64,000 nucleotides of DNA from an uncultured Actinomycetota bacterium (GTDB taxonomy: Bacteria; Actinomycetota; Thermoleophilia; RBG-16-64-13). A model generated the notes under the pieces. The model saw nothing but the letters and a program-made list of their open reading frames with translations, searched no databases and had not been told where the DNA came from. Made by a program: the position numbers and the translations under genes. Within the stretch, counting starts at the first letter, position 1, and each line of letters starts with the position of its first letter. The stretch covers positions 583,429-647,428 of the forward strand of contig OY969565.1 of the NCBI GenBank assembly GCA_963701105.1, written 5' to 3'. This document shows positions 1-50,105 of the stretch, piece after piece.

Positions 1-355
1 GCAGCCCGGGTCGGTGGTCGTGGACATCAGTATCGACCAGGGCGGCTGCTTCGCCACGTCGCACATGACCACCCACAGCGACCCGACTTTCGTGGTCGAC
101 GGTGTCGTGCACTACTGCGTGGGCAACATGGCCGGAGTGGTGCCCATCACCTCGACGCTAGCGTTGACCAACGCCACCTTGCCCTACATCATGAAGTTGG
201 CGGAGAAGGGATTGGTGGCGGCCGCACGGAGCGATCCAGGTCTCGCGCGGGGGATCAACGTGATGGAAGGTAAGGTCACCAATCCAGAGGTGGCGAAGGC
301 CACGGGCAACGCCTATTTTCCCCTGGAGAGCCTCCTGCCGATCGAGTTCTCTTGA
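1..355 (+). CDS. ald: Alanine dehydrogenase, C-terminal part (5' end outside window)
   Basis: Translation [14 protein letters not shown]...[26 protein letters not shown] matches the Ald C-terminal signature. Confidence 0.93.
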
Positions 356-26292: not shown

Positions 26293-26877
26293 TCAGCCCT
26301 GTCCGGTCCTGGCGATGACCTGCTTGCACACAAGCCTCAGGGTCTCGAACACGCCGATGCCGCTAAGGGCGCAGGCTTCGATCACGGGCGAGCCCGTGTG
26401 GTTCAAGAGGTCCCGCATATCGTCGGCCGAGAAGATGTCTGAGAGATCGCGCTTGTTCAGCTGGATCACGAATCCCAGGTTGGTGAGGTCGTCTCCCTGG
26501 TCGAGCAGGTTGTCCCACAAGTTGAGATAGCTCTCGACGTTCTCGTCGAGACGGGTTATCTGGCTGTCCGCGACGAAGACCATGCCGTCGACGCCCTGGA
26601 GCACCAGCCGCCGCGACGCGTTGTAGTAGGACTGGCCCGGCACCGTGTACAGGTGGAACCTGGTCTTCATTCCCCGCACGGTGCCTAGGGACAAGGGCAG
26701 AAAATCGAAGTAGAGGGTGCGCTCCTCCTCTGTGGCGATGCTCACCAGTTTGCCGCGGGCGTCGGGATTCACCTTCTTGTGGATGTACTGGATGTTGGTG
26801 GTCTTGCCACAGAGGCCGCAGCCGTAGTACACGATCTTGTAGTTGATCTCTCGGGCCGCGAAGTTGATCAGTGGCAC
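26293..26877 (-). CDS. mglA: MglA small Ras-like GTPase (Myxococcus/Thermus type)
   Basis: KIVYYGCGLCGKTTN, RTLYFDFLP, HLYTVPGQ, GVDGMVFVADSQ, NKRD. Confidence 0.93.
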   Translation of the reverse strand: MPLINFAAREINYKIVYYGCGLCGKTTNIQYIHKKVNPDARGKLVSIATEEERTLYFDFLPLSLGTVRGMKTRFHLYTVPGQSYYNASRRLVLQGVDGMVFVADSQITRLDENVESYLNLWDNLLDQGDDLTNLGFVIQLNKRDLSDIFSADDMRDLLNHTGSPVIEACALSGIGVFETLRLVCKQVIARTGQG

Positions 26878-26881
26878 TCTG

Positions 26882-27394
26882 CTACTCCATGTCCGCGAAC
26901 AGGTCGTCGATGGCCTCGTCGGCGAGGAGAGAGTAGTCGTCGTCGATTATGACGGAGGCCTGATCGTCTTCATCCATGAGTTCGAAGACGGGCTTCAGCA
27001 CCTCTATGGCCCGATTGGTGTACAGCCGCACCTTCCCAACCTGGGTCTCCCGTCCGAAGGTGATGACGAGGAGAACCTGGTCGGTGACCTGGGCAACGTG
27101 GAGGTTCGATTCGCGGCCTTCGTGGAACAGGAGCGTGAACTCCCGCTCGTTGAGCACCTCGGCCAGTTGTTGTGTGGCGGCAAAAGATCCGGCCGCCAAC
27201 GACGCCAATGTCAAGGTGTCGGGATGCCCTTCGACGGCGGAGGTGGTGATGGGTTGCCCGCTGGTGGAGACGAGTGCGATGAAGCGAGACCCCGATACCT
27301 GGCGCAGTTTATCCAGGATGTCGTCCACGGCCCGCATCTGGCGGTTGCTGATCACGAGTCCCCTGCGACGAGGCACAACCACCTCCTTGGACAC
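26882..27394 (-). CDS. mglB: MglB roadblock/LC7 protein (GAP partner of MglA)
   Basis: LASLAAGSFAATQQLAEVLNEREFTLLFHEG, LLVITF..GKVRL, acidic C-terminal helix EAIDDLF; directly upstream of mglA. Confidence 0.9.
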   Translation of the reverse strand: MSKEVVVPRRRGLVISNRQMRAVDDILDKLRQVSGSRFIALVSTSGQPITTSAVEGHPDTLTLASLAAGSFAATQQLAEVLNEREFTLLFHEGRESNLHVAQVTDQVLLVITFGRETQVGKVRLYTNRAIEVLKPVFELMDEDDQASVIIDDDYSLLADEAIDDLFADME

Positions 27395-27431
27395 GGCTAG
27401 GGCCGCTTGAGAACGGCTTGGGGCATGGCGA

Positions 27432-27483
27432 AGTATAACAAGGCCCCGTGCCCTTTGCTACGCGCGCGGGCCGCTGGTACAAT
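27432..27483. promoter_or_regulatory. Divergent sigma70-type promoters for mglBA (-) and gcvH (+)
   Basis: Minus strand: TGtTATACT (-10 at 27437-27432). Plus strand: TTGCTA(27455)-17 bp-TACAAT(27478-27483). Confidence 0.55.
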
Positions 27484-27568
27484 CCGGCGCGATTCCCCGG
27501 CCGCGCGGGAGCGCCTGGGGCCTGTGCTATGATGAATGCCAGCCACGCCTGGCGAGAAAGGAGCGCTT

Positions 27569-27955
27569 GTGAACCCGAAGAATCTGAAGTACCACAAGGA
27601 GCACGACTGGGCGCGCATCGAGGGAGACGTCGCGACTCTCGGAGTGACAGATTACGCCCAGGAGTCCCTCGGTGACATCGTCTACATCGAGCTCCCCGAG
27701 GTCGGTGCCGAAGTCTCCGCTGGTACTTCCTACGCCGAGATCGAATCGGTCAAGGCTGTTTCCGACGTGTACGCCCCTGTGAGTGGAACAGTCATAGAGG
27801 CGAACGATGAGGTTGTGGACGCTCCCGAGCTCATCAACGAGAGCCCCTACGAAGACGGATGGCTAATCAAGGTGAAGCTCAGCGACCCGGGTGAAGCCGA
27901 CGATCTCATGTCGGCGGAGGATTACGAGGAGATGCTGGCCGAGCAGGAGGAATAG
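27569..27955 (+). CDS. gcvH: Glycine cleavage system H protein
   Basis: KYHKEHDW, GVTDYAQESLGDIVY, lipoyl-Lys motif IESVKAVSD, NESPYEDGWL; SD AAAGGAG. Confidence 0.96.
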   Translation: MNPKNLKYHKEHDWARIEGDVATLGVTDYAQESLGDIVYIELPEVGAEVSAGTSYAEIESVKAVSDVYAPVSGTVIEANDEVVDAPELINESPYEDGWLIKVKLSDPGEADDLMSAEDYEEMLAEQEE

Positions 27956-28080
27956 CTCTTCGTCAGCGGCGGAAGGGCCGGATACTCGGAGAAGCGGGCG
28001 CATCGGGTCCGCTTCTCCATCAGTGGGTGGTTCAGGCCATGACGAGCTACCGGTGGCTAACTCCATACCTCTAGTTGACG

Positions 28081-28109
28081 TTGAAGGTTTCTGAGCTTGG
28101 GAGTATACT
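28081..28109 (+). promoter_or_regulatory. Sigma70 promoter giving a probably leaderless rsiG-like mRNA
   Basis: TTGAAG-17 bp-TATACT, then 6 nt to ATG 28116, no SD. Confidence 0.65.
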
Positions 28110-28115
28110 GAAGCC

Positions 28116-28394
28116 ATGGAAGAACACGATACGACTTCTTTCGAACTGCTTCTGGAGATCCAGAACCTCAGCGATGACGAGATCAAGCGCACGGCGGAGG
28201 CTCTGACTGAAGAAGAGCGCGCCGTATCGAAGACTCGTCGCATCATTCACGCGAAACTCGATCTTCTTCGTGCGGAGATGGTGCGTCGTCTGCGCGACAA
28301 GCACAGCGCGGGGGGGAGTCTCTTCGAAGAGGGAGACGTGGACAAACTGAGCGCCATTCTCAGTTCCCGGGGTCTCGCTGAGGAAGAAATCTGA
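28116..28394 (+). CDS. rsiG: RsiG-like c-di-GMP-binding anti-sigma factor, single-motif form
   Basis: LSDDEIK..L.EEERAVSKTRRIIHAKLDLLRAE = E-x3-S-x2-R-x3-H-x3-D in a predicted coiled coil; 92 aa. Confidence 0.75.
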   Translation: MEEHDTTSFELLLEIQNLSDDEIKRTAEALTEEERAVSKTRRIIHAKLDLLRAEMVRRLRDKHSAGGSLFEEGDVDKLSAILSSRGLAEEEI

Positions 28395-28406
28395 ACGGAG
28401 GTCCCG

Positions 28407-28697
28407 ATGGGCGATAGGATCGAGCGCATCGTTGCCGGGGTTCAGGAACTATTCCACGACCTTTCGGTCGGTGCCCGCGAGGAGCGGGTCATGCGCTACG
28501 TCGTAACCGAACTCCACAAAGGTCGTTCCTTCGACGACCTCATGGCCGATCCCTACGTCGTGAACCACACGACGGAGGAAGATCGGGCACGCCTCCTTGA
28601 GAACCCCGATAATCTTCGCGAGATAGAGGATCGTATCGCCGCGGAGTTCCACGACTATCGTCGCCAGATAACCCACGGTGATGAGGGTGTGGAGTGA
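28407..28697 (+). CDS. Hypothetical helical protein
   Basis: 96-aa ORF with SD GGAGG; overlaps the next gene (GTGA); no recognised motif. Confidence 0.75.
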   Translation: MGDRIERIVAGVQELFHDLSVGAREERVMRYVVTELHKGRSFDDLMADPYVVNHTTEEDRARLLENPDNLREIEDRIAAEFHDYRRQITHGDEGVE

Positions 28698-29164
28698 TCG
28701 TCTGCCCCAAGTGCGGCACGCAGAACGCGGAAGACGCCAACTTCTGCAGTAGGTGCGGTGGCCGCTTGGTGTTGCGCGACCTTTCGGAGACCACGGTCAC
28801 CTACGCTCCCACCGCTACCGACGAGGCCGGCGCCGTCTCCCGTGCCGGATCCACGGTCGGTCAGGCGCCTTTGCTCTTGATCATGGCGGGAGGGGGGAGA
28901 GAGGGCGAGCAGATTCTCCTCGAGGATGATCTTCTCACCATCGGCCGCAGTCCCGACAGTCACCTGTTCTTGGACGACGTGACCGTGTCGCGTCACCACG
29001 CGCGAATCGTCCACGACGCCACCGGATTCGCGGTCGAAGACCTCAACAGTCTCAATGGCACTTACGTGAATCGCGGGAGGGTGGAGCGCCAGCACCTCAG
29101 CGATGGGGACGAGGTCCAGATAGGCAAGTTCAAGTTCGCCTACTTGGAGCCCTCGGAGTCGTGA
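28694..29164 (+). CDS. Zinc-ribbon + FHA domain protein (GarA/OdhI-like)
   Basis: CPKC..FCSRC, ETT phospho-motif, FHA IGR..FLDDVTVSRHHA..DLNSLNGTYVN..GDEVQIGKFK. Confidence 0.88.
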   Translation: MIVCPKCGTQNAEDANFCSRCGGRLVLRDLSETTVTYAPTATDEAGAVSRAGSTVGQAPLLLIMAGGGREGEQILLEDDLLTIGRSPDSHLFLDDVTVSRHHARIVHDATGFAVEDLNSLNGTYVNRGRVERQHLSDGDEVQIGKFKFAYLEPSES

Positions 29165-29919
29165 GCGCAGACACCGCCGGGTCTGGCCGTTCCGGAAGCC
29201 TGGAGGGCAGACAGTCCCTCGGAGAAGGCGGGAAAGACGGCGATCTGCTCACCATCGGCCAGGTGGTCGACACCTTGCGGGGGGAGTTCCCAGACCTGAC
29301 TATCAGCAAGGTCAGGTACCTTGAGGATAGAGGTCTTCTCAAACCGGATCGCACGGCCGGGGGTTACAGGAAATTCAGTCCCACCGGGATCCGGGCCCTT
29401 CGCACCATCCTGACTCTGCAACGCGATGAGTTCCTGCCGCTGGACGTGATCAAGGAACGCATCGATCGGGGCACGGCCTCTGCGATCGGCCGAGCGTTGG
29501 CCCCATCCGGTCCGTTCGAAGCCCGGAAAGGTCTTCCGAAGGACGAGAGCACGCACACGTGGCGGGAGTCGCTGGAGATCACCGGGGTCTCGGAAGAGTT
29601 CCTGCGGTCTCTCGGAGACTTCCACCTCTTCGAGCAGCGAGACCGTGCCGGGGACCCCGTTTTGAGCGATACCGACCTGGAGGTCGTGAGGATCTGCGAT
29701 CTCTTGGCGAAACACGGGGTCGAGCCGCGCAACCTTCGTCTGCTGCGCTCAGCCGCCGAGCGGGTATCGGCCATGCTGGCACAAGTAGCGGCACCTGCTC
29801 TGCGCTCGGCGCATCCGGAACGCCGCCAGGAGGGCGAGCACCTGCTCGCGGATCTGGGGTCGCTGATGGCCCGCCTCCTCGACTTGTTGCTCTACAAGGA
29901 ACTCAGCCGCCTCGTCTGA
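29161..29919 (+). CDS. MerR-family regulator (FtsR/Rv1828-like)
   Basis: LTIGQV..EFPDLTISKVRYLEDRGLLKP.RT.GGYRK..QRDEFLPLDVIK; gcvH-FHA-MerR synteny. Confidence 0.85.
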   Translation: MSADTAGSGRSGSLEGRQSLGEGGKDGDLLTIGQVVDTLRGEFPDLTISKVRYLEDRGLLKPDRTAGGYRKFSPTGIRALRTILTLQRDEFLPLDVIKERIDRGTASAIGRALAPSGPFEARKGLPKDESTHTWRESLEITGVSEEFLRSLGDFHLFEQRDRAGDPVLSDTDLEVVRICDLLAKHGVEPRNLRLLRSAAERVSAMLAQVAAPALRSAHPERRQEGEHLLADLGSLMARLLDLLLYKELSRLV

Positions 29920-29949
29920 TCGAGGCCTCGCCTGCCGCCAAGGAGATCG

Positions 29950-30465
29950 ATGGATCTGAAGACCTTCATACGTGACGTCCCTGACTTCCCGAAACAGGGC
30001 ATCCTGTTCAAGGACATAATGCCCCTGCTTCAGAATCCGCAGGCTCTCCGATACACAGTCGATCGGCTGGCGGAGTTCAGCGCCCCCAAACACCCCGACA
30101 TTGTCCTCGGGGCCGAGGCACGCGGGTTCATCCTGGGAGCCGCGCTTGCGTACTCCATCGGAGCCGGTTTCGTGCCGGCTCGGAAGCCCGGAAAACTCCC
30201 GTGGCGCGTTGCCTCGGCCGAATACGCGCTTGAGTACGGGGTGGACACCCTCGAGATGCACGCCGACGCCATAATGCCTGGGGAGAGGATCATAATCCAC
30301 GACGATCTGTTAGCGACGGGGGGTACTGCCAGAGCCAAGATAGATCTGGTGGAGCGCGCCGGTGGGGTCGTGGTAGGTCTGGCTTTCATCATCGAGCTCG
30401 GCTTCCTCGAGGGTCGCAAGAAGTTGGCGGGCTACGACGTCTTCAGCCTGATCACCTACTCATAG
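29950..30465 (+). CDS. apt: Adenine phosphoribosyltransferase
   Basis: PDFPKQGILFKDI, EARGF, RKPGKLP, LEYG, DDLLATGGT. Confidence 0.96.
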   Translation: MDLKTFIRDVPDFPKQGILFKDIMPLLQNPQALRYTVDRLAEFSAPKHPDIVLGAEARGFILGAALAYSIGAGFVPARKPGKLPWRVASAEYALEYGVDTLEMHADAIMPGERIIIHDDLLATGGTARAKIDLVERAGGVVVGLAFIIELGFLEGRKKLAGYDVFSLITYS

Positions 30466-30476
30466 TAAGAACCGAT

Positions 30477-30515
30477 AGAAAAACGGAAGGCCGCCCACAA
30501 GGGGGCGGCCTGCCG
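30477..30515 (-). terminator. Intrinsic terminator with U-tract on the minus strand (possibly bidirectional)
   Basis: Stem AGGCCGCCC(30488-30496)/GGGCGGCCT(30503-30511) extended by CGG/CCG; minus-strand tail TTTTTCT. Confidence 0.8.
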
Positions 30516-30662
30516 CAGATTTCGGACGCATCGGCTCCCGAAGGCGCCGTCGACAGCGTTCGGTCGTTAGGACGACGGCTAGCGGCGGGTGCCACCTCCG
30601 GTCCTGAAGCCGTCACGTCCGCAACGCAAACTGTCTATGGGGACCACCTCCTTTCGACGCTT
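30477..30662 (-). ncRNA. Putative ~190-nt small RNA or sORF transcript of unknown family
   Basis: Bounded by promoter TTGGCA-17-TAAAGT and an oriented terminator; contains AAAGGAGGTG, a second GGAGGTGG and several helices; no long ORF. Confidence 0.5.
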
Positions 30663-30668
30663 GGTGTG

Positions 30669-30697
30669 ACTTTACTAGCTCGAAGGCTCGTTGCCAA
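30669..30697 (-). promoter_or_regulatory. Sigma70-type promoter for the small transcript
   Basis: Minus strand TTGGCA(30697-30692)-17 bp-TAAAGT(30674-30669). Confidence 0.6.
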
Positions 30698-30783
30698 GCC
30701 CTATCCTGTAGAGCTGGGGGGTGGGCGGAAATCGACGCCTGCGGGCGGAGCAGAGCGGTCCTTGGGTGAATCATCCTTATCGG

Positions 30784-30811
30784 ACTTTACATAACATACA
30801 TTATCGTGCGT
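30784..30811 (-). other. dif: dif site (XerC/XerD chromosome dimer resolution)
   Basis: Minus strand ACGCACGATAA-TGTATG-TTATGTAAAGT vs E. coli GGTGCGCATAA-TGTATA-TTATGTTAAAT; AT-rich, intergenic, at the gene-strand switch. Confidence 0.88.
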
Positions 30812-30864
30812 AGCACGAAGCGTGCAGAAGGGAGGCTGAATCAAGCCGACCTGCTGTATCTCGC

Positions 30865-31743
30865 TTAGAAGAGCTTCTTGTGCAGTATGGTCTTGAGCCG
30901 ATCGAGGGCTTTGACCTGTTCACGCGACACTGTGCGTTGGGTCAAGCCCATCTCATCGGCCACCTGCTGCTGAGTGAGGTCCCCGAAGAAGACCAGACAA
31001 ATGATCTTCTTCTGCAGATCAGAGAGAACTCGCAGCGCGTCGTACAGCAGGATGCGGTCCTCGACGGGTAACGAGAAGTTCTGCGCCCGGATGGCCTTCA
31101 CCAGAGACTTGTCGACCGCGTCGTCGGACGACCCGTTGAGCGGTTCGTCGAGCGAATGCAGATTCGTCGCCCCGTAGACTCGGATGATCTCAAGGACACC
31201 TTCGGCCTGGATGTTCACTTTTTCGGCCAGTTCAGCGATCGAGGCCGAACGGTGATGCTCTTGAAAGAAGGCGGATTGGGCCTCCTGGATCCGAGTGTAG
31301 AGCGCATGCGCCCAGCGCGGTTGCCGAAGGAGAAGCGCGTCACGGAGATGGTGGCGCACTTCGCCGTCGACGATGGCCACGGCGTAGGTGCTGAAGGCAT
31401 GCCCGCGACTCGTCTCAAAGCGCTGAGCGGCCTTCATGAGGCCGATACGTGCCAGTTGGAACAGGTCCTCATAGGGTTCCGTGGTCCACGAGAAGCGCTT
31501 CAATGTGTGGTGCAAGAGCCCCTGGTTGACCTCCAGCAGGAGGTCGAGGGCGCGGAGGTCGCCCTTCTGGTATCTCTCCACCAGTTCTTCGTTGGTCCCC
31601 GCGGCGTGATTCCCCTCCATCGGAGTCTCAGCGTTCTCAATGGTAAGACCATTGCCTCCGGCCAGCGACCTGAGCCTCGCGCGAGCGCCGCCGGCCGGCG
31701 GGCGTGCGTCCAGCTGCGCCGCCACGGGTGCGGCAGTGCTCAC
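30865..31743 (-). CDS. Atypical group 3 sigma factor (SigB/F/G-like); alternative start ATG at 31620
   Basis: EDLFQLARIGLMKAAQRF..FSTYA..GEVRHHLRD, SLD, LTQQQVADEMGLTQRTVSR. Confidence 0.88.
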   Translation of the reverse strand: MSTAAPVAAQLDARPPAGGARARLRSLAGGNGLTIENAETPMEGNHAAGTNEELVERYQKGDLRALDLLLEVNQGLLHHTLKRFSWTTEPYEDLFQLARIGLMKAAQRFETSRGHAFSTYAVAIVDGEVRHHLRDALLLRQPRWAHALYTRIQEAQSAFFQEHHRSASIAELAEKVNIQAEGVLEIIRVYGATNLHSLDEPLNGSSDDAVDKSLVKAIRAQNFSLPVEDRILLYDALRVLSDLQKKIICLVFFGDLTQQQVADEMGLTQRTVSREQVKALDRLKTILHKKLF

Positions 31744-32954
31744 TGCACCAGCTGGAAGAGGTTGAAGATGGGCAGGTACATGGAGATGACCACCAGACCC
31801 ACTATGCCGCCGATGAAGATCATCATGATGGGCTCGAGGATCGAGGTCAGCGACTTGATGGCTGAATCCACCTCATCTTCGTAGAAATCGGCGATCTTGT
31901 GGAGCATCGTGTCAAGGGCCCCGGTCTCCTCCCCGATGGCTATCATCTGGGTGACCATGGGTGGGAACACGGAGACCTTCTCGAGCGGCCGGGCGATAGA
32001 GTCGCCGCTCTTGATATTCTCCTTCACGCCTTCCATCGCGTGTTCGATGACCGTGTTGCCTGAGGTACGGCCGGTTATCTCGATAGCCTGCAGAATGGGC
32101 ACGCCGGAGCTCACCAGAGTGGCCAGGGTGCGGCTGAAGCGCGCCACGGCGATCTTCTGGACGATAGGCCCGAGTTTCATGGGCAGGCGGAGTTTCGTCT
32201 TGTCCCAGGTCTCGCGACCGGTCTTGGTGGCCTTGAGTCGCTTGAGCCCGTAGATAGCCAGGAACATCGCCGGGAAGACCACGAACCAGAACGAACGCAA
32301 GAAGTCGCTGAGCGAGACCATGATGCGCGTGAGCAGGGGCAACTGGCCCCCGAGGTCGTTGTACATCGCCCCGAAGACCGGGATCACGAAGATGATCAGG
32401 GCGAAGAGCACGAGGATGGCGAACACCCCGATCATGATCGGATAGGTCATCGCCGACTTGACCGAGCGCCGCAGGCTGTCGTCTTTCTCCAACTGCGTGG
32501 CGAGCCGCTCGAGCGTCACGTCGAGCACGCCGCCCACCTCTCCGGCCCGGACCATGCTCACGTAGAGCCGGTCGAAGGCCACGGGGTGCCTCTCGAGAGC
32601 GTCTGAGAGTGGTGACCCCGCTTCTACGTCCTGCCTCACCTCGCTCAGGATCTTTCTGAAACGGGGATTCTCTGTCTGCGCCTCAAGAATGTAGAGGGCG
32701 CGCAGTAGGGCGAGGCCCGCCTTGATCATGGTAGCGAACTGGCGGGAGAAGATCACCTTGTCGTGGAGCTTGATGCGGGTGAATCCTTCCATGAGCTCAG
32801 AAAGGTCAGGAAGACCCTTCTGCTCTTCGACACTCAGCACCGTGAGCCCGCGCCGGCGTAACTCGGCGGCGACGGCCGCTTTGGAGTCCCCTTGGATCTT
32901 GCCCCGCGTCTGCGCGCCGGCGGACGGCTTGGCGGTATAGGAATAGGTGCTCAC
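31740..32954 (-). CDS. pilC: Type IV pilus platform protein PilC (GspF family)
   Basis: FSRQFATMIKAG, MVRAGEVGGVLD, SAMTYP, RFSRTLATLVSSGVP, MIAIGEETG, LEP. Confidence 0.95.
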   Translation of the reverse strand: MSTYSYTAKPSAGAQTRGKIQGDSKAAVAAELRRRGLTVLSVEEQKGLPDLSELMEGFTRIKLHDKVIFSRQFATMIKAGLALLRALYILEAQTENPRFRKILSEVRQDVEAGSPLSDALERHPVAFDRLYVSMVRAGEVGGVLDVTLERLATQLEKDDSLRRSVKSAMTYPIMIGVFAILVLFALIIFVIPVFGAMYNDLGGQLPLLTRIMVSLSDFLRSFWFVVFPAMFLAIYGLKRLKATKTGRETWDKTKLRLPMKLGPIVQKIAVARFSRTLATLVSSGVPILQAIEITGRTSGNTVIEHAMEGVKENIKSGDSIARPLEKVSVFPPMVTQMIAIGEETGALDTMLHKIADFYEDEVDSAIKSLTSILEPIMMIFIGGIVGLVVISMYLPIFNLFQLVQ

Positions 32955-33004
32955 CGCGGCCTCCCTGGTTGGAGTTCTCTGCTGGACATCAGCTGTGCTC
33001 CCAT

Positions 33005-34069
33005 CTACGCCGCTCCGGTCATCATCAGTCGAGTCAGATCTTCAGGATTCGAAGACTGTCGCTCGGCCAGTTCCCTGGTGATGAGCCTGCGACGAACGAG
33101 ATCTGCCAAGGCGGCGTCCATCGTCTGCATGCCGAATTTCGTGCCCGTCTGCATGACGGTGTAGATCTGGTGCGTCTTGCCTTCTCTGATGAGATTGCGC
33201 ACCGCCGGCGTGGGCACCAACACCTCGCAGGCGACGCAGCGACCGCGCCCGTCTCTGGTGGGAAGCAACTGCTGCGACACGATGCCCTGGATGGTAGAGG
33301 CGATCTGAACGCGTATCTGGTCTTGTTGGTGCGGTGGAAAGACGTCTATGAGGCGGTCGATGGTCTGCGGCGCGTCTTGCGTGTGCAGGGTGGCGAGGAC
33401 GAGGTGACCGGTCTCGGCCGCCGTGAGCGCCGTCTGGATGGTCTCGAGATCCCTGAGTTCGCCCACCAGGATGATATCGGGGTCCTGGCGCAGGACGGAC
33501 TTGAGCGCCCTGTTGAAGGATTTGGTGTCGCTTCCCACTTCGCGCTGGTTGACCACGCAGGACTGGTGCCGGTGCAGGAACTCGATGGGGTCCTCGATGG
33601 TCATGATGTGTTCGCACCGGGTGCGGTTGATCTCGTCGACCATGGCGGCGAGCGTAGTGGACTTGCCGGAGCCTGTTGGCCCGGTGACGAGCACGAAACC
33701 ACGCGGTTTTGCCGCCAACTCGTGGAGCACCTTGGGCAGGCCGAGCTCTTCGACGGACCGTATGTCGATGGGGATGAGCCGGAAGGCGGCCCCCAAGCTG
33801 TCGCGCTGGAAGTAGGCATTGACACGGAATCGGGCGCGCCCCGGCACGGAGTAGGAGAAATCGAGTTCCCAATCGGTCTCGAGCCGCTGACGCTGGTCTT
33901 GGGTGAGCACGCTGTACACCAGATCGCGGCTGTCGTTCGCGGTGATGACGGGATAATCCATCGCCTCGAGCCTTCCGCTCACTCTGAGCGTTGGCGGAAC
34001 ACCCACGGAGAGGTGGAGGTCCGAGGCTCCACGATCCAGGACTTCCTTTAAGATTTCTATCAGATCCAC
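33005..34069 (-). CDS. pilT: Type IV pilus retraction ATPase PilT
   Basis: ASDLHL, GPTGSGKSTT, TIEDPIE, LRQDPD, ETGHLV..TLHT, AVRNLIRE, GMQT. Confidence 0.95.
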   Translation of the reverse strand: MDLIEILKEVLDRGASDLHLSVGVPPTLRVSGRLEAMDYPVITANDSRDLVYSVLTQDQRQRLETDWELDFSYSVPGRARFRVNAYFQRDSLGAAFRLIPIDIRSVEELGLPKVLHELAAKPRGFVLVTGPTGSGKSTTLAAMVDEINRTRCEHIMTIEDPIEFLHRHQSCVVNQREVGSDTKSFNRALKSVLRQDPDIILVGELRDLETIQTALTAAETGHLVLATLHTQDAPQTIDRLIDVFPPHQQDQIRVQIASTIQGIVSQQLLPTRDGRGRCVACEVLVPTPAVRNLIREGKTHQIYTVMQTGTKFGMQTMDAALADLVRRRLITRELAERQSSNPEDLTRLMMTGAA

Positions 34070-34082
34070 TGCGTCCTCCCCG

Positions 34083-35804
34083 TCACACGATGACCCGGGC
34101 GATCTCTTCGATCGTGGTGCGGCCCTGCAGGACCTTCTCTATTCCGTCTTCCCGCAGATTCTTCATGCCCTCTGCCTGCGCCACTCGACTAATCTCATCG
34201 GCACTCTTGCGCTCGACCGTTAGCCGTTCGATAGCTTCTGTCACCAACATGACCTCATAGATGCCCACGCGGCCCTTGTATCCGGTGCCATTGCAGCGGG
34301 CGCAGCCGATAGGCTTGTACAGCTTCACGTTCTCCCAATCTTCAACGGCTTCAGGGGGGAAATCGTTGCGCCGGAGCATCTCTTGAGTGGGCTGATACTC
34401 CTCCCTACACGTGTCGCAGAGCTTCCGAGCCAGGCGTTGGGCAAGGACGCAGTCCACCGCGGAGGCGGTCAAGAAAGGCTCGACTCCCATCTCCGTGAGG
34501 CGAGACAGGGCGCCCGGCGCGTTGTTGGTGTGGAGCGTGGAGAGCACCAGGTGGCCCGTGAGCGCCGACTCGACGGCGATCATCGCCGTTTCTCTATCCC
34601 GGATCTCCCCGATCATCACGATGTCGGGATCGCAGCGGAGTATGGATTTGAGTCCAGAGGAGAAGGTGAGTCCGGCCTTGATGTTGGTTTGCACCTGGTT
34701 GATGCCGGCCAGGCGATACTCGACCGGATCTTCCACGGTAATGATGTTCTTCTCGGGCGTGTTCAGGATATTGAGCGTGGCGTACAGCGTGGTGGACTTG
34801 CCGGAACCCGTCGGGCCGGTGACCAGGATGGCTCCGTAAGGCTTTGTAAAGGACTTCTCGTAGCGGGCCAGACTCTTGGGCGCGAAACCCAGATCTTCCA
34901 GTCTGAGCATCACGTTAGACCTATCCAGCAGGCGGATGACTATCTTCTCTCCGTAGACCGTGGGGAGCGACGCCACCCTCATGTCGATGGGCTTGTTCCC
35001 CACCATGAGCCCGATACGACCGTCCTGGGGCACCCTCCGTTCGGCGATGTCCAGGTCGGCCATGATCTTGACTCGAGACAGTACGCCGGCCTGCATCCTG
35101 CGCGGGATCGACATCACCTCGTGGAGCACGCCGTCGTTACGGAAGCGCACCACCATCTCCTTGGCCTGGGGCTCGAAGTGTATGTCGGAGGCACCGTCGT
35201 CCGCCGCCTGCGCCATGACGCTGTTGACGAGTTTGACGATGGGAGCTTCGTCCATCTGCTCGCGGATATCGCGGACCTCGTTGGCCGACAGCTCGCCGGT
35301 GGGCACTTGGTCGTCGAGGTTCTCCCCCACGCTGTCGCCGAGCCTGCGGAGTTTTGAGATCTGGGTGAAGATGTCCTCTTCGGTGGCTATGGCGGGCTCG
35401 ATGTCGCAGCCGGTGAGCATACGCAGGTCATCGACGGCGAAGATGTTCGCCGGATCGACCATCGCCACCAGCAGGGTGTGGTCGTCAAGGTAGGAGACCG
35501 GGATGGCTGCGTAGCGCCGCGCGTCTTTCTCAGACACCAGGTTGGCCGCGGAGGCGTCGACGGTCATGGCTCCCAGGTCAAGGTGCCTGACCCCTAAGCG
35601 TTCGGCCAAAGCCACGCTGAGTTGTCCGGCCGTGAGCCAGCCGTGCTCGATCAGGATCTCGCCGATGCGGAGCCGCGAGGTCTTCTGCTCGGCCAAGGCT
35701 TGGTCGAGCTGCTGCGGTGTGATGAACTCCATCTCGATCAGGATCTCGCCGGTGCGTTTCTTGCCGAGCCGCCGTTGAGGTAACTCTTCTCGCGGAAGTT
35801 GCAT
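34083..35804 (-). CDS. pilB: Type IV pilus extension ATPase PilB with N-terminal MshEN domain
   Basis: MshEN-like tandem motif; ASDIHFEP, PQDGR, GPTGSGKSTT, EDPVE, Cys4 (CDTC..CARC), GYKGR; ATG overlaps the aroE stop. Confidence 0.94.
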   Translation of the reverse strand: MQLPREELPQRRLGKKRTGEILIEMEFITPQQLDQALAEQKTSRLRIGEILIEHGWLTAGQLSVALAERLGVRHLDLGAMTVDASAANLVSEKDARRYAAIPVSYLDDHTLLVAMVDPANIFAVDDLRMLTGCDIEPAIATEEDIFTQISKLRRLGDSVGENLDDQVPTGELSANEVRDIREQMDEAPIVKLVNSVMAQAADDGASDIHFEPQAKEMVVRFRNDGVLHEVMSIPRRMQAGVLSRVKIMADLDIAERRVPQDGRIGLMVGNKPIDMRVASLPTVYGEKIVIRLLDRSNVMLRLEDLGFAPKSLARYEKSFTKPYGAILVTGPTGSGKSTTLYATLNILNTPEKNIITVEDPVEYRLAGINQVQTNIKAGLTFSSGLKSILRCDPDIVMIGEIRDRETAMIAVESALTGHLVLSTLHTNNAPGALSRLTEMGVEPFLTASAVDCVLAQRLARKLCDTCREEYQPTQEMLRRNDFPPEAVEDWENVKLYKPIGCARCNGTGYKGRVGIYEVMLVTEAIERLTVERKSADEISRVAQAEGMKNLREDGIEKVLQGRTTIEEIARVIV

Positions 35805-36673
35805 CAGTGGCCTCGAGCCTTCGATCTCATCAATTGCACGGGTGCCGTCCTCCCAGTCCACAATTCGTACGAACGGGCGGCCTGTTGCACCAGCATCTCG
35901 TACCCATCCAGTGCGACAGCTCCTCGTATGTCCGCGGCGGCCAGGAGCGGAGTCGTGCGCGTCGAGCACACGATATCCATGACCGTCTGTCCGCCACGGA
36001 AGATATCGACAGGAACCGGGGTTCCCTTGACCTTCTCGTCAAGGCCGACGGAGGTCGCGTTGACTATCAGGTCGGCTCGGGGCCCGAAAGACAGAAGGTC
36101 GCTCTCGCTGAGGACGCGCGTGGGGACCGCGCTCCACGTGGAGGCCTCCCGGCATAGATCGCCCGCCCGCGCGGCGGTGCGGTTGTAGAGCCATATCTCC
36201 GCCGCACCGCCTGAAGAGAGACCGGCGATGACCGCCCGCGCCGCGCCGCCTGCCCCGATGACGAGACACCTGGCCCCGGCGGGCCCTCTCCCCCAGCCGC
36301 TCTCGAGCGCCGACAGGAATCCATGGACATCGGTATTGTGTCCGATGAGCCGACCGCCGCGGTTCACGATGGTGTTCACGGCACCGATGCGCTCGGCGAG
36401 GGGCTCGACATCGTCGAGGAGAGAGATCACCCGCTCCTTGTGGGGAACGGTCACATTCGCCCCTACGGCCCCGAGCGCCCGCAGCCCCGCCACCGCTGCG
36501 GTGAGATCCTCGGCGAGTACGTCGAAGGCGAGATAGACGAAGTCGAGTCCTTGGGAGACGAACGCAGCGTTGTGCATGGCGGGCGACCGGGAGTGGCTGA
36601 CGGGATGGCCGAGCAGGCCGATCAGCTTGGTAGCCGCTCCGATGACCGTGCCCCTCTCTTCGTCCACGCGCAT
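35804..36673 (-). CDS. aroE: Shikimate dehydrogenase
   Basis: GHPVSHSRSP.MHN, NVTVPHK, GAVNT, NTD, GAGGAA, NAT. Confidence 0.95.
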   Translation of the reverse strand: MRVDEERGTVIGAATKLIGLLGHPVSHSRSPAMHNAAFVSQGLDFVYLAFDVLAEDLTAAVAGLRALGAVGANVTVPHKERVISLLDDVEPLAERIGAVNTIVNRGGRLIGHNTDVHGFLSALESGWGRGPAGARCLVIGAGGAARAVIAGLSSGGAAEIWLYNRTAARAGDLCREASTWSAVPTRVLSESDLLSFGPRADLIVNATSVGLDEKVKGTPVPVDIFRGGQTVMDIVCSTRTTPLLAAADIRGAVALDGYEMLVQQAARSYELWTGRTAPVQLMRSKARGH

Positions 36674-40922: not shown

Positions 40923-41744
40923 CTAATTCGTGGGCGATCCGCTCTCGCCCTGGTCCCTCATCATCTGACGAAGCATGTCTATCGACTTGCGGATCAGGCG
41001 GGAGACATGCATCTGGGATATCCCCACGCGGGCGGCGATCTGGGTCTGAGTCATCCCCTCGAAGAAGCGGAGATGCAGTATGAGACGCTCCCGTTCGTCG
41101 AGTTGGCTCATGACCGGCGCCAGGTAGCGTCGCTGCTCGACCAGCTCGTACTCCGGTTCTTCTCGCCCCAGGTAGTCGAGCAGTTCGAGTGAATCCTCGT
41201 CGTCGGACGCCCCACTGGAGAACAGTGAAAGTGAGTTGTATGCGCGTCCGCTCTCAAGTGCCTCGAGCACTTCCTCCTCTGTCACCTCGCAGGCCACGGC
41301 CAATTCAGCGATGGTGGGTGAGCGGTTCAGCTCCACCGTCAACTGCTCCATGACCTTGTTCAGGCGGATATTGAGGTCTTGTAGAGCCCTGGGCACCTTG
41401 ACCGCCCAGCCTTTGTCCCGGAAGTATCGCTTTATCTCTCCGAGGATGGTGGGAGTGGCGTACGTCGACAGCTCTACGCCGCGGTCGATGTCGAACCGGT
41501 CGATGGCCTTGATCAGCCCGATAGACCCCACTTGGATGAGGTCTTCTACCGGCTGCCCCCTGGAGGCGAAGCGACGAGCGAGGCTTCTGACCAAGGGTAG
41601 GTAGCGCGTGATGAGTTCGTCTCGCGCCGCCGTGTCGGTCTCGCGGTGGACACGTCGCAGCAGTTCTTTCTCGGGGACCGTGTTGATGGGCTCCGAGAAG
41701 AGCGCGGTGCGGGCGTTATGCTTGACGGACCCGGCTTCGGTCAT
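40923..41744 (-). CDS. SigB/SigF-type stress sigma factor
   Basis: EDLIQVGSIGLIKAIDRFD, TYATPTILGEIKRYFRDKGW..VPR, TQTQIA.RVGISQMHVSRL. Confidence 0.95.
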   Translation of the reverse strand: MTEAGSVKHNARTALFSEPINTVPEKELLRRVHRETDTAARDELITRYLPLVRSLARRFASRGQPVEDLIQVGSIGLIKAIDRFDIDRGVELSTYATPTILGEIKRYFRDKGWAVKVPRALQDLNIRLNKVMEQLTVELNRSPTIAELAVACEVTEEEVLEALESGRAYNSLSLFSSGASDDEDSLELLDYLGREEPEYELVEQRRYLAPVMSQLDERERLILHLRFFEGMTQTQIAARVGISQMHVSRLIRKSIDMLRQMMRDQGESGSPTN

Positions 41745-49121: not shown

Positions 49122-50105
49122 TCAATCCCCGGCGAGCATGCGCTCTATCAGTCCGTCGAGTTCGTCGGGCTGACCGGCGGCCGCGTCCAGGTTGCGCGCG
49201 TCCTCGACCGAGCCGGCGTCGGGCGCCGCAGCCTGCGTCTGCAGTCGCACGCCGGCCGCGCGCGCCTCGAAGGCCTTGGACTTCATCTGGCTACGGATCC
49301 TATCGATCCTTTCCTCGAGCGCCGCTCGGTCGGCAGAGGTCGCCGCTCTCTTGGGGCCGTCACGCCCTCGATCCACAGGTGGTGCGGCGCCGGCGTTCCG
49401 TTCGTCCGTCAGACGGGCCGCCTCAAGAAGAAGAGTCTCGAACGAGGAATGCAGGGTGCGTGATGGGCTGCGGTCGGCGGAATCGAAGCTGAAGACGCCG
49501 TTGCCCCAGCCGATGGCTTGGAAGATGGCCTCCTCCCCGCTCGAGGGTCGCGGGCCCTCGAGTCGCGCGGCCACCGACTCGCCTGAGTCCAGCCAGATGC
49601 GCGCCACCTCGCTGCCGGAGACACCGAGGACGGTGAGGCAACCTGAGGCCCGCGCGATGTGGAGTGTCTGAAGGATCTCCGGCAAGGAGAGTTCGGTGAG
49701 GTTACCCCTCAGCCCCCCGGCGGCCAGCGCCGGAGGTATCGACTCGGTGCGTCTGAACACGGCCCGCACGCGGGCGAGCAGCTCGTCATGGCGGAAAGGT
49801 TTGACCAGATAGTCATCGGCCCCGGCGTCGAAACCACGCACCACGTCGTCGACACAACTGAGGAATATCACCGGGATGTGCGCCGTTCGCGGAGACGCCT
49901 TGAGAAGGACGCAGAGCTCGAAGCCGCTCAGCCCGGGCATGAGCACGTCGCTCAGTATCAAGTCGGGAGGATCGTCCACGATGCTCCGTAGGCCGTGCAT
50001 GCCGTCTTCGGAGGCTCGCGCGTCGTAGCCTGCTGCCTTCAGCGATTCCAGGACGAGTGTGCGCACATCTGGATCGTCCTCCACTATGAGTATCCGCTGC
50101 CCCAC
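49122..50105 (-). CDS. Response regulator: receiver + DUF4388 (PatA-N-like) domain + acidic tail
   Basis: IVEDD, LSDVLMPG, GADDYLVKPF; GNLTELSLPEILQTL..SGCL..GEEAI..W..GVFSF..LLLEAARLTDE. Confidence 0.85.
   Translation of the reverse strand: MGQRILIVEDDPDVRTLVLESLKAAGYDARASEDGMHGLRSIVDDPPDLILSDVLMPGLSGFELCVLLKASPRTAHIPVIFLSCVDDVVRGFDAGADDYLVKPFRHDELLARVRAVFRRTESIPPALAAGGLRGNLTELSLPEILQTLHIARASGCLTVLGVSGSEVARIWLDSGESVAARLEGPRPSSGEEAIFQAIGWGNGVFSFDSADRSPSRTLHSSFETLLLEAARLTDERNAGAAPPVDRGRDGPKRAATSADRAALEERIDRIRSQMKSKAFEARAAGVRLQTQAAAPDAGSVEDARNLDAAAGQPDELDGLIERMLAGD

Follow-up and report, generated by a model that had tools for sequence, protein, structure and literature searches.

The link between the RsiG-WhiG pair and type IV pili is already published, and the same paper reports that the His-variant single-motif RsiG of C. 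woesei, a member of the Thermoleophilia, binds c-di-GMP with a Kd of 25 uM alone and of 1.7 uM with WhiG (PMC8325347). In Synechocystis, the sigma factor SigF drives pilA1 (PMC2532724). The role of MglA in the polarity of motility is established in M. xanthus. Here, we analyzed a window (i.e., the whole stretch of DNA under study) of 64,000 nucleotides from an uncultured Thermoleophilia bacterium, in which mglA-mglB, rsiG, pilB-pilT-pilC, and a sigma gene lie within 9.5 kb. Judging from sequence, type IV pili appear to be under c-di-GMP control at three levels in this bacterium, and we consider it moderately probable that a c-di-GMP-gated pilus regulon comprises two gene blocks at the replication terminus and further genes on the same contig.

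Two gene blocks at the replication terminus

The features discussed below are as follows (positions in the window):

26293-26877 (-): mglA, Ras-like polarity GTPase of the M. xanthus/T. thermophilus type, full-length match to PDB 6hjh
26882-27394 (-): mglB, Roadblock/LC7 GAP partner, 5 nt upstream of mglA
27440-27483 (no strand): divergent housekeeping-type promoter region of mglB/gcvH; TTGCTA-17-TACAAT with TG on the + strand
28116-28394 (+): rsiG, by homology a single-motif c-di-GMP-dependent anti-sigma (His variant), 92 aa; first gene of the rsiG-p96-FHA-ftsR operon
28407-28697 (+): p96, conserved 96-aa protein, coupled to the FHA gene
28694-29164 (+): zinc-ribbon and FHA protein, OdhI/GarA-like; PF00498 74 bits; NF041660 110 bits, under cut-off
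29161-29919 (+): ftsR, MerR-family regulator; NF050798 192.6 bits, cut-off 150
29950-30465 (+): apt, which ends the left replichore block; NF002633 234.6 bits, cut-off 224
30488-30511 (no strand): GC-rich hairpin terminator in the gap between apt and sigP, which converge; 9-bp stem with 8 GC pairs, then a T-run
30778-30805 (-): dif-like site, located where the strand bias flips and the GC skew levels off
30865-31743 (-): sigP, divergent SigB/F/G-like group-3 sigma; last gene of pilB-pilT-pilC-sigP
31740-32954 (-): pilC, platform protein; PF00482 241.8 bits, two repeats
33005-34069 (-): pilT, retraction ATPase; TIGR01420 504 bits, cut-off 319
34083-35804 (-): pilB, extension ATPase whose N-terminus bears a tandem MshEN c-di-GMP motif, from profile and PDB matches
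35804-36673 (-): aroE, shikimate dehydrogenase domains; stop overlaps the pilB start
36004-36030 (-): WhiG-type promoter motif within the 3' end of aroE and 199 nt before the pilB ATG; TCAAG-N-TGTCGATA
40923-41744 (-): Sig2, canonical SigB/F/G-family sigma; TIGR02980 298.5 bits, cut-off 234
49122-50105 (-): REC-PATAN (DUF4388) response regulator; PF00072 and PF14332

All the genes named in the initial annotation were recovered at their positions, and its division into separate transcription units holds. The left block consists of mglBA (-), divergent from gcvH (+) and from the rsiG-p96-FHA-ftsR operon (+), whose stop and start codons overlap and which is followed by apt. The right block, aroE-pilB-pilT-pilC-sigP (-), is convergent with apt. 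No family match was found for p96 in domain and family profile searches; the gene keeps its place, with rsiG before it and the FHA gene after it, in loci of f1 (the source's own family) and of f6, another family of the class. The locus had also been described as lying around the terminus, with which three observations agree: the cumulative GC skew shows a peak and plateau at contig 617-650 kb, the gene-strand bias flips there, and the dif-like site, which we take to be akin to Xer/dif sites, has no second copy, with up to 7 mismatches allowed, in the high-GC part of the contig (998 kb). Its core is kept at the same junction in 7/12 f1 loci. A WhiG-promoter match at the same positions was rejected as false, the sequence being the dif-like site.

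The idea that these genes form a functional cluster fared less well. The two blocks lie on opposite replichores and face each other across the dif-like site; they adjoin only in f1, are 80-130 kb apart in the family f3, and are found on different contigs in f6. The 9.5-kb stretch is thus most likely two conserved blocks joined at the terminus, rather than one circuit locus. With a completeness of 51% for the assembly and a chimeric contig, little weight can be given to absences.

MglA aligns with M. xanthus MglA over residues 1-191 (PDB 6hjh, E 2.5e-73), including the P-loop, the Arg of the 'RTL' segment, the PGQ motif, and NKRD; identity is about 60% by eye and the catalytic residues are kept. 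MglB matches PF03259 (43.8 bits) and the PDB MglB 6izw_B (E 9.3e-20), and reaches 78 bits with NF052242, below the cut-off of 200. At E<=1e-40, MglA is present in 87 of the 93 genomes of f1, f3, and f6 versus none of 107 from the other families of the class, and in 8 of 401 genomes of a phylum sample, all eight from f1, f3, or f6; this MglA type was found only in these three Thermoleophilia families.

MglA and MglB, apparently driven by a housekeeping promoter, would probably choose the active pole of the pili, and this is the weakest step of our model. There is a real, if lesser, possibility that they steer no pili at all and serve some other polar or cell-cycle process, or that adhesion or DNA uptake, and not reversing motility, is what the pili are used for. 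Such a reading would suit the conserved neighbors, which are VanW and rsiG-FHA-ftsR-apt, i.e., non-pilus genes (mglBA is divergent from rsiG-(p96)-FHA-ftsR-apt in 29/29 loci of f1, f3, and f6, and linked to pil genes in f1 only). It would also suit the promoter region, where a block with GTATAAC is kept in 9/9 f1 loci and neither a WhiG-type nor a SigB-type motif is apparent between mglB and gcvH, and the occurrence of PilT in 74 of the 107 genomes of class families without MglA. However, the resemblance to the M. xanthus motility protein, the presence of PilT in nearly all genomes of the MglA-bearing families (90/93), and a small PATAN gene adjoining mglB in 5/9 f1 loci all favor a role in pilus polarity. 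The REC-PATAN regulator, with orthologues (E<=1e-40) in at least 5 of 201 class genomes, has a possible but weak link to the pilus and MglB.

WhiG-type promoters and the pilus machinery

RsiG scores 48.3 bits with Pfam PF22802 (cut-off 27), aligns with R. radiotolerans RsiG (PDB 7lq4_D, E 7.6e-5), and contains one E-x3-S-x2-R-x3-H-x3-D motif, whose Q/H position is His in 9/9 f1 orthologues. It is the only RsiG match in the genome. The sole true WhiG of the genome (C1:736542-737348; NF004935 367.7 bits, cut-off 343) is encoded about 125 kb from rsiG and carries the K-x3-G-R c-di-GMP contacts, as these residues are given in PMC8325347, K, G, and R being identical to those of S. venezuelae WhiG.

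Scanning for the published WhiG consensus TAAA / GCCGATAA with up to 2 mismatches gave 45 sites in 998 kb, five of which lie between genes and have a gene in the same orientation no more than 350 nt away; of these five, three are found in front of pilD, pilA, and a pilin-like operon. A refined motif has 8 sites, of which four belong to pil operons and two to genes led by a riboswitch, and the reversed sequence, scanned as a control, has 1; having been derived from those same sites, the motif is only a lead. The pilB site was then checked independently. It is kept 199-216 nt upstream of pilB in 11/13 f1 genomes, with invariant hexamers and a variable spacer, and since it lies within the aroE coding sequence, protein constraint contributes to this conservation. 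A WhiG-type motif before pilA is found in 10/11 SigP-bearing f1 relatives and in 5/5 that lack SigP (one of the five by eye). Overall, WhiG-type promoter motifs precede pilD-pilMNO, pilB, pilA, and the minor-pilin operon, and we infer from their sequence that WhiG uses them.

PilB matches PDB PilF/PilB structures (E about 1e-156) and TIGR02538 (651 bits, slightly below the cut-off of 675.65), and its c-di-GMP motif domain scores 61.6 bits with NF053729 (cut-off 38) and 68 bits with PF05157 (MshEN). The pilB ATG and the aroE TGA share 1 nt. The initial annotation had proposed a search of the remaining genome for pilin, pilD, pilMNO, whiG, and GGDEF genes, and all were found: seven N-methyl pilin ORFs (C1:687-693 kb), pilD with pilM-N-O (C1:560-564 kb), the whiG described above, and five GGDEF proteins. 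The modules also occur together in relatives, and none of these outcomes speaks against c-di-GMP control of the pilus as first suggested.

SigP and the pilA leader

The GTG start of sigP overlaps the pilC stop by 4 nt; ATG 31620 is an alternative start because the f3 and f6 orthologues align only from about residue 40-50. SigP scores 166.9 bits with TIGR02980, under the cut-off of 234, and just 80 bits with the FliA/WhiG model, and its top PDB matches are SigB 8x6g and SigF 1l0o (about 3e-24), with WhiG 6pfj at 1e-9. A WhiG-like assignment was discarded since SigB/F/G profiles and structures score better. The 'atypical sigma' noted beside pilC is thus present, with its overlap, but belongs to the SigB/F/G-like class.

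The position of sigP is conserved. The gene follows pilC in 12/36 f1, 32/36 f3, and 18/21 f6 genomes, and in 0/107 from the other families of the class; the f3 and f6 loci read pilC-sigP-riboswitch-pilA. SigP-like sigmas also adjoin pilC in 4/10 loci from other actinobacterial families (38-44% identical to SigP in one such family), and one distant actinobacterial locus reads whiG-pilD-[c-di-GMP-I riboswitch]-sigP. From these arrangements, SigP appears to be a pilus-linked and pilus-dedicated sigma.

Two observations lie outside the window and went beyond the initial annotation, namely a c-di-GMP-I riboswitch in the pilA leader and evidence for a pilus-dedicated sigma. The riboswitch scores 60.7 bits with RF01051 (gathering score 35) and 59.7 versus 59 with RF03167, and the same element is found ahead of pilA in 16 genomes across f1, f3, and f6. 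In 11 of the 16 leaders, a terminator embeds the complement of the aptamer segment GGCAAACC; in 3/16, no terminator was found. The unconstrained MFE of the leader is the antiterminator fold (-59.6 kcal/mol), the aptamer with terminator reaching -52.3. Because the terminator 5' arm and loop can pair with the aptamer instead, bound c-di-GMP should end pilA transcripts, and the riboswitch would act as an OFF switch.

A second motif, P2 [G(T/G)CTAn-N13-(G/T)GGnA(T/G)], was derived from five leaders, and a subsequent search placed it 11-12 nt ahead of the aptamer in 11/11 further SigP-bearing genomes. Ending 11-12 nt before the riboswitch, this SigB/F-class motif is present in 15/16 SigP-bearing genomes, and it resembles the B. 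subtilis SigB consensus quoted in PMC2532724. The strict motif has just one other intergenic site, so no regulon is available as a test. Both P2 and the riboswitch are missing from 5/5 pilA leaders of f1 genomes without SigP. From motif class, position, and co-distribution, we infer that SigP reads P2.

It is also conceivable, although we judge it unlikely, that independent known systems merely flank dif, that SigP is a general or stress sigma of the SigB type with no connection to pili, and that the P2 block is a promoter for SigA (housekeeping) or Sig2, or else acts at the RNA level. Indeed, the blocks adjoin only in the source's family, and the whole VanW...apt block is syntenic, non-motility genes included. 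Moreover, P2 also reads as a weak housekeeping promoter (TTGTCT-N18-nAnnnT, its invariant A and T fitting either class), and, as it was lost together with the riboswitch, it might be a promoter, for whichever sigma, that is inherited along with that element. The four SigP-lacking genomes whose loci were fetched form one clade, so the joint absence of sigP, P2, and the riboswitch counts as about one event. Sig2 is a rival reader of P2. But Sig2 occurs in relatives with and without SigP, and the latter keep it without P2; P2 has an invariant GG(G), which characterizes the SigB/F class rather than SigA (PMC2532724); and the embedding of sigP between pilC and riboswitch-pilA, its pilC-adjacent counterparts in a distant family, and the distant riboswitch directly upstream of a sigP-like gene all argue for the dedicated SigP. 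Very improbable is a third reading, the pairing of RsiG with the adjacent sigma in the initial annotation, whereby RsiG, encoded 2.5 kb off, would let c-di-GMP gate SigP directly: both kinds of group-3-type sigma could be partners in principle, but their genes are close in f1 only (80-130 kb apart or on separate contigs in f3 and f6), RsiG is far commoner than SigP (179/201 versus 63/201 class genomes), and SigP has H-x3-K-R, its H and K replacing two of the three contact residues and R alone being kept, while the true WhiG has all three. Hence, the partner of RsiG is likely the true WhiG, about 125 kb away.

The circuit compared with known systems

In the circuit that we propose, RsiG would inhibit WhiG, WhiG would activate the pil genes and sigP, SigP would activate pilA, and the riboswitch and MshEN-PilB would be further checkpoints. 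At high c-di-GMP, a single-motif RsiG homodimer with c-di-GMP would sequester WhiG, as the homologous proteins of Conexibacter and Rubrobacter suggest. When c-di-GMP is low, WhiG would be free to transcribe pilD-pilMNO, pilB-pilT-pilC-sigP, pilA (from P1), and the minor-pilin operon; SigP, made from this WhiG-dependent operon, would then drive P2, the second pilA promoter, in a feed-forward loop. The MshEN domain of PilB would be a post-translational c-di-GMP input, either activating or inhibitory.

The c-di-GMP control of the pilus at several levels, as first suggested, is thus supported by sequence, including evidence outside the window. The combination had also been thought undescribed. In the literature searched, neither it nor the sigma cascade is in print, but each part is of a known kind, and both the RsiG-WhiG-pilus link and c-di-GMP binding by the His variant stand in PMC8325347.

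Gene content and gene order around the terminus

Every gene named in the initial annotation is present, as established by ORF listing and family scans. The window was taken from one 1.34-Mb contig (C1), rated 51% complete and chimeric by G+C content (64–66% in positions 1 to ~998 kb, ~35% beyond). Its final ~340 kb probably come from a different organism, via a mis-join or a concatenated bin, and our analyses were restricted to the first 998 kb. The gene calls are GC3-based and crude, and the "intergenic" labels of the WhiG-type and P2 motif sites discussed below depend on them. The pilin, pilD, pilMNO, whiG and GGDEF genes sought in the rest of the genome were all located, with five GGDEF proteins, and the type IVa pilus components PilB, PilT, PilC, PilD, PilM/N/O and pilins are all present. 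PilB reaches 651 bits against TIGR02538, slightly below the cut-off of 675.65. The order is pilB, then pilT, then pilC, the stop of which overlaps the GTG start of a sigma gene, here called sigP (starting at the ATG at 31620 would be just as plausible). Among public records that carry sigP, the closest are titled as an uncultured Actinomycetota MAG and, at 89% identity, a Thermoleophilia MAG.

Main features (window positions unless preceded by C1)
26293–26877, minus strand: mglA, full-length alignment to M. xanthus MglA (E 2.5e-73)
28116–28394, plus strand: rsiG, Pfam RsiG PF22802 (48.3 bits, cut-off 27)
ATG at 35804, overlapping the aroE stop: pilB, with an MshE-type c-di-GMP motif domain
36004–36030: WhiG-type site before pilB (refined pattern), 199 nt upstream of pilB
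C1:560.2–563.7 kb: pilD-pilM-pilN-pilO, then aroC-aroK-aroB
C1:687–693 kb: seven pilin-like ORFs, two being PilA paralogues
C1:690075–690149, minus strand: pilA c-di-GMP-I riboswitch, between a WhiG-type promoter and pilA (RF01051, 60.7 bits, gathering score 35)
C1:736542–737348: whiG, NF004935 (367.7 bits, cut-off 343)

The pilD locus (C1:560245–567240) holds pilD-pilM-pilN-pilO and an unknown 215-aa ORF, then aroC-aroK-aroB, and shikimate-pathway genes are interleaved with pilus genes at both loci (aroC-aroK-aroB after pilO, aroE before pilB). In the window, at 61091–62207 and 59902–60780 (minus strand), queA is apparently split into two ORFs, spanning Pfam profile positions 2–193 and 219–322, and the tgt match is limited to profile positions 142–355; frameshifts or errors of assembly may account for this. 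An Rfam scan of window 26–37 kb returned only a sub-threshold match to the CC2171 sRNA (30488–30663, 27.7 bits against 75), which we take for chance or for the terminator.

The initial annotation proposed a candidate circuit clustered within the ~9.5 kb from mglA to pilB; gene order in relatives does not sustain a functional cluster. In the family of this genome (f1), the order VanW-mglA-mglB-gcvH-rsiG-p96-FHA-ftsR-(apt)-sigP-pilC-pilT-pilB-aroE-mltG-alaS-Sig2 is kept in 8/8 fetched loci with SigP, the apt match missing in one and a 4-kb insertion present in one. The left block, mglA-mglB / rsiG-(p96)-FHA-ftsR-apt, is kept in all 20 further loci (8 from f3 and 8 from f6, two other Thermoleophilia families, and 4 from SigP-less f1 genomes). 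The two blocks adjoin in f1 only: mglA and pilT are 80–130 kb apart in f3 and on different contigs in f6. The cumulative GC skew climbs to a plateau at 617–650 kb and gene orientation flips at ~610 kb. Between the convergent apt and sigP lies a 28-nt site (window 30778–30805), unique in the genome, whose core is kept at the same junction in 7/12 f1 loci and which we take to resemble Xer/dif sites. Hence, the skew plateau, the strand flip, the dif-like site and the f3/f6 separation identify the 9.5-kb "cluster" as the place where, in one family, the ends of two replichores meet. Since the unrelated VanW and apt are conserved along with mglBA-rsiG, this neighbourhood by itself shows gene-order conservation and not a functional link.

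We do not count a WhiG-consensus match at window 30777–30803 as a promoter: no gene lies downstream, and the match coincides with the dif-like site. An Xer-type integrase is encoded at window 352–1365, and another integrase adjoins whiG (C1:737349–738326).

Distribution in a sample of 201 genomes of the class (totals include the genome studied here, family columns exclude it)
Protein: total; f1; f3; f6; other families
PilT: 164; 36/36; 36/36; 18/21; 73/107
RsiG: 179; 34/36; 36/36; 20/21; 88/107
MglA: 88; 33/36; 34/36; 20/21; 0/107
SigP: 63; 12/36; 32/36; 18/21; 0/107

RsiG, WhiG and the promoters of the pilus operons

RsiG is the sole match to the RsiG model genome-wide and aligns across the motif helix with the R. 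radiotolerans RsiG crystal sequences. It carries one copy of the c-di-GMP motif E(X)3S(X)2R(X)3[Q/H](X)3D, with His at the Q/H position, as do 9/9 f1 orthologues. The same His variant is described, in the text of PMC8325347, for the RsiG of C. woesei (Thermoleophilia), whose Kd for c-di-GMP is 25 uM on its own and falls to 1.7 uM when WhiG is present. The earlier pairing of RsiG with the adjacent sigma had to be given up. Indeed, SigP has H-x3-K-R at the WhiG contact positions, and a true WhiG is encoded elsewhere on the contig. This WhiG is ~68% identical (by eye) to that of S. venezuelae, and its VKYVAGR segment, identical in both, holds the K, G and R that contact c-di-GMP (the three residues are those of section 10 of PMC8325347). 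Since the contact residues differ in SigP and WhiG keeps all three, the partner of RsiG is most likely WhiG and not SigP. RsiG-c-di-GMP very probably sequesters WhiG. A structure prediction of two RsiG, two c-di-GMP and WhiG scored 0.30 against a mark of 0.34, which weighs neither for nor against binding.

Little space separates the genes for RsiG, a 96-aa protein that matched no family, a zinc-ribbon-FHA protein and FtsR (window 28116–29919, plus strand), and twice a stop codon overlaps the next start by 4 nt; rsiG is probably co-transcribed with regulators of cell division and Ser/Thr signalling. Only 7 nt lie between the end of a sigma-70-like −10 element and the ATG of rsiG, and the transcript may therefore lack a leader.

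The published WhiG search pattern (TAAA / GCCGATAA, at most two mismatches; text of PMC8325347) finds 45 distinct sites in 998 kb, 14 of them intergenic by our crude gene calls. Five of these 14 have a co-oriented gene within 350 nt, and three of the five precede pilD, pilA and a pilin-like operon. With a lineage-refined pattern, the reversed sequence used as a control yields 1 site and the actual sequence 8: before pilD, pilA, the pilin-like operon and two riboswitch-led surface-protein genes, inside mltG, before pilB, and one coding site that is probably a chance match. As the refined pattern was derived from the pil sites themselves, its site count is circular. The pre-pilB site, with invariant hexamers and a variable spacer, recurs 199–216 nt upstream in 11/13 f1, 1/3 f3, 1/2 f6 and 2/6 of f23, another actinobacterial family; it lies within the aroE coding sequence, which weakens the argument from its conservation. 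A WhiG-consensus match inside pilB, upstream of pilT (window 34195–34222), is in coding sequence and is missed by the refined motif. These motifs suggest that WhiG likely drives the pil operons, pilBTC-sigP included.

SigP and the leader of the major pilin gene

The "atypical sigma" that the initial annotation had noticed beside pilC is not WhiG-like. SigB/F/G is its best-scoring family (TIGR02980, 166.9 bits, under the cut-off of 234.35), and its best PDB matches are SigB and SigF (~3e-24), WhiG reaching just 1e-9. Its 80.1 bits on TIGR02479 (cut-off 189.6) and its H-x3-K-R residues do not fit a WhiG/FliA assignment. SigP would work like the SigB/F/G class, of which it is a divergent member at most. 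A canonical sigma of this class, Sig2, is also encoded in the window and passes TIGR02980 at 298.5 bits. A search of the genome for RsbW-type anti-sigma factors identified no SigP partner, the one strong match (C1:144 kb) being unlinked to sigP or Sig2.

In f3 and f6, the gene order is aroE-pilB-pilT-pilC-sigP-riboswitch-pilA-pilA2...pilD. Across the phylum, SigP-like sigmas (38–44% identity) occur in 32/401 genomes, including f23 at 15/32; among the 32 is G288, a genome not yet published, and no other result depends on it. Ten SigP-like loci from outside the class were fetched to read their neighbourhoods: pilB-pilT-pilC-sigP are directly adjacent in 4/10, pilC lies within ~4 kb in 2 more, and at least one pilus gene is found within 8 kb either side in 8/10. 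At a locus of another actinobacterial family (L121, G548:C1:2056300–2073000), the order is whiG-pilD-c-di-GMP-I riboswitch-sigP-like sigma-...-pilA-second riboswitch, the riboswitch before the sigP-like gene scoring 74.4 bits on the GGC-variant model.

The pilA riboswitch reaches 59.7 bits against 59 on that variant model, and we read its variant-defining column as A, as in the parent class. RF01051 matches were obtained in 28/41 relatives, and in f3 and f6 the match directly follows sigP and precedes pilA. The aptamer blocks are invariant across 16 aligned pilA leaders. Downstream of the aptamer lie a hairpin and a U-tract, the 5' arm and loop of the hairpin holding the complement of aptamer GGCAAACC. 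Such a terminator with embedded complement was found in 11/16 aligned leaders by script and in two f3 leaders by eye, and was not seen in three of the 16. The unconstrained fold forms the antiterminator pairing (−59.6 kcal/mol, against −52.3 kcal/mol for the sum of aptamer and terminator), so ligand binding should favour termination. We have good confidence that the element is a functional c-di-GMP riboswitch, and its folding model makes an OFF switch reasonably probable. A search of sequencing runs with the pilA leader gave small shares only (5–8% of words), all from assembled contigs, a form in which the starts and ends of transcripts do not show.

Two more c-di-GMP-I riboswitches, at C1:981780–981857 and 984959–985036 (minus strand, 65.8 bits each), both have TCAAG-N-GTCGATA in front of them. 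Each leads a gene for a pectate-lyase-fold protein, of which one also contains SLH and Big_7 domains, and Wzz/Wzy/epimerase EPS genes adjoin.

Besides its WhiG-type promoter (P1), the pilA leader carries a second motif before the riboswitch, P2: G(T/G)CTAn-N13-(G/T)GGnA(T/G), derived from five leaders (G000, the present genome, and its relatives G020, G025, G023 and G028). P2 was found in 11/11 further SigP-containing genomes, ending 11–12 nt before the aptamer; overall, this distance is 11–12 nt in 15/16 leaders and 102 nt in one. It is similar to the consensus given for B. subtilis SigB in the text of PMC2532724, where Synechocystis SigF, a SigB-related group-3 sigma, is described as driving pilA1. 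In 5/5 SigP-less f1 genomes, the orthologous pilA leader has neither P2 motif nor riboswitch. This pilA lies at the same chromosomal distance from mglA and keeps a WhiG-type promoter in 5/5 (four by pattern, one by eye), and Sig2 is retained in at least four of the five. P2 and the riboswitch vanish together in these genomes; PilBTC and AlaS trees place the four whose loci were fetched in one clade, and they therefore count as about one loss event. One SigP-less genome of family f7 has a riboswitch-pilA leader with a WhiG-type promoter and without P2; three other riboswitch loci of SigP-less genomes were dropped as not comparable, having no pilin downstream. Of the 7 strict copies of the motif in 998 kb, two are intergenic, at pilA and at C1:976379. 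A weak housekeeping promoter also fits the P2 block; on the co-occurrence and the resemblance to the SigB consensus, we lean slightly towards SigP as the sigma that reads it.

The other intergenic strict P2-like copy (C1:976379–976402, minus strand, GTCTAG-N12-GGGTAT) lies in the EPS gene region; no clear downstream gene was found for it.

MglAB, PilB and a possible cascade among known systems

MglA keeps the P-loop, the intrinsic Arg, PGQ with the catalytic Gln, and NKRD, as aligned to M. xanthus MglA, and matches T. thermophilus MglA at E 4.2e-66. Its partner gene mglB, 5 nt upstream, encodes a Roadblock/LC7 domain (PDB MglB match, E 9e-20; 78 bits on NF052242, cut-off 200). This MglA type occurs in 8/401 phylum genomes, all from f1, f3 or f6. 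In the text of PMC4316618, M. xanthus-type Group 1 MglA is listed in other phyla and Actinobacteria are assigned Groups 2 and 5. The MglAB of the three families were perhaps horizontally acquired. That MglAB steers these pili is a tentative reading, which we put just short of even.

Five f1 relatives (loci L027, L029, L030, L031 and L032) have a ~125-aa stand-alone gene between mglB and gcvH, the start of which resembles PATAN/DUF4388 domains by eye; it is missing from the window and from G003, G013 and G011. A REC-PATAN (DUF4388) response regulator adjoins relA (window 49122–50105, minus strand), with orthologues at E≤1e-40 in at least 5/201 class genomes, among the best 11 candidates per genome.

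The N-terminal tandem motif of PilB scores 61.6 bits on NF053729 (cut-off 38) and 68.4 bits on PF05157 (cut-off 23.1), and this MshEN region probably binds c-di-GMP. Since PilB proteins with MshEN are widespread, there is nothing unusual in this part.

These elements can be arranged in a feed-forward sigma cascade bracketed by c-di-GMP. RsiG-c-di-GMP would hold WhiG; WhiG would turn on the pilus machinery and, with it, the pilus-embedded SigB/F-like sigma; SigP would fire the major pilin promoter, sited exactly before an OFF-type c-di-GMP-I riboswitch; PilB-MshEN would be a third c-di-GMP checkpoint; and Myxococcus-type MglAB would add pole switching in three families. That all of this operates as a whole, MglAB pole switching included, in the Thermoleophilia clade and partly in other Actinomycetota seems unlikely.

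Separate publications already cover the RsiG-WhiG-pilus link, MshEN-PilB, and pilins controlled by a riboswitch or by SigF. In the literature searched, outside figures and supplements, we found no description of a pilus-embedded sigma, of a c-di-GMP riboswitch on an actinobacterial pilin, or of MglAB with type IV pili in Thermoleophilia; the text of a 2026 preprint on WhiG regulons, apart from its figures and supplements, contains no "Thermoleophil", "MglA" or "PilB". Nor did that literature describe a pilus-associated sigma subfamily, such as the one that the loci read here point to in Actinomycetota pilus clusters. The controls are known piecemeal (RsiG-WhiG in Rubrobacter, the riboswitch in Clostridioides, MshEN in Vibrio, a SigF-type pilin sigma in cyanobacteria). 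If the cascade is true, all four act on a single output in one lineage, with two alternative sigmas in series, a natural case for asking why one second messenger is checked at transcription initiation, elongation and the motor. A Myxococcus-type polarity GTPase is also placed in a monoderm phylum, and with the cascade and MglAB together, monoderm actinobacteria would be expected to reverse during twitching motility.

In Clostridioides difficile, as Bordeleau reportedly found in 2015, pilA1 is under a class II c-di-GMP riboswitch that turns the pilin ON. Both cases concern a monoderm whose major type IV pilin gene has a c-di-GMP riboswitch in its leader; unlike in C. difficile, the element is here of class I, with a terminator geometry predicting OFF, and stands in Actinomycetota behind tandem alternative-sigma promoters. 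PilB resembles Vibrio cholerae MshE, whose MshEN domain role is cited in the text of PMC8325347, and PilB-type ATPases, by its N-terminal tandem motif above the curated cut-off. Like the MglAB of M. xanthus and T. thermophilus (PDB 6hjh, 3t12; text of PMC4316618), ours show adjacent mglB-mglA and an MglA of full-length similarity with the intrinsic Arg and Gln retained, but the host is a monoderm actinobacterium.

As in R. radiotolerans and C. woesei (PMC8325347, main text), RsiG has a single motif, here the His variant of C. woesei, WhiG keeps the K-x3-G-R contacts, and flagellar-type WhiG promoters precede pil operons. Unlike in the Rubrobacter system described there, rsiG shares an operon here with ftsR and the FHA gene, on the strand opposite to mglBA, the pil genes occupy three separate loci near the terminus, and pilA has a second sigma and a riboswitch as further layers; that main text contains no "riboswitch", "SigF" or "SigB", and its figures and supplements could show such genes. 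In its class, SigP is close to Synechocystis PCC 6803 SigF as described in the text of PMC2532724, a group-3 SigB-related sigma largely dedicated to the major pilin promoter of pilA1, with a G-rich −10/−12 element. Unlike that SigF, SigP is encoded inside the pilus cluster, after pilC, has the putative promoter GTCTA-N13-GGGnAt instead of TAGGC...GGTAA, feeds into a c-di-GMP riboswitch and is seemingly under WhiG control.
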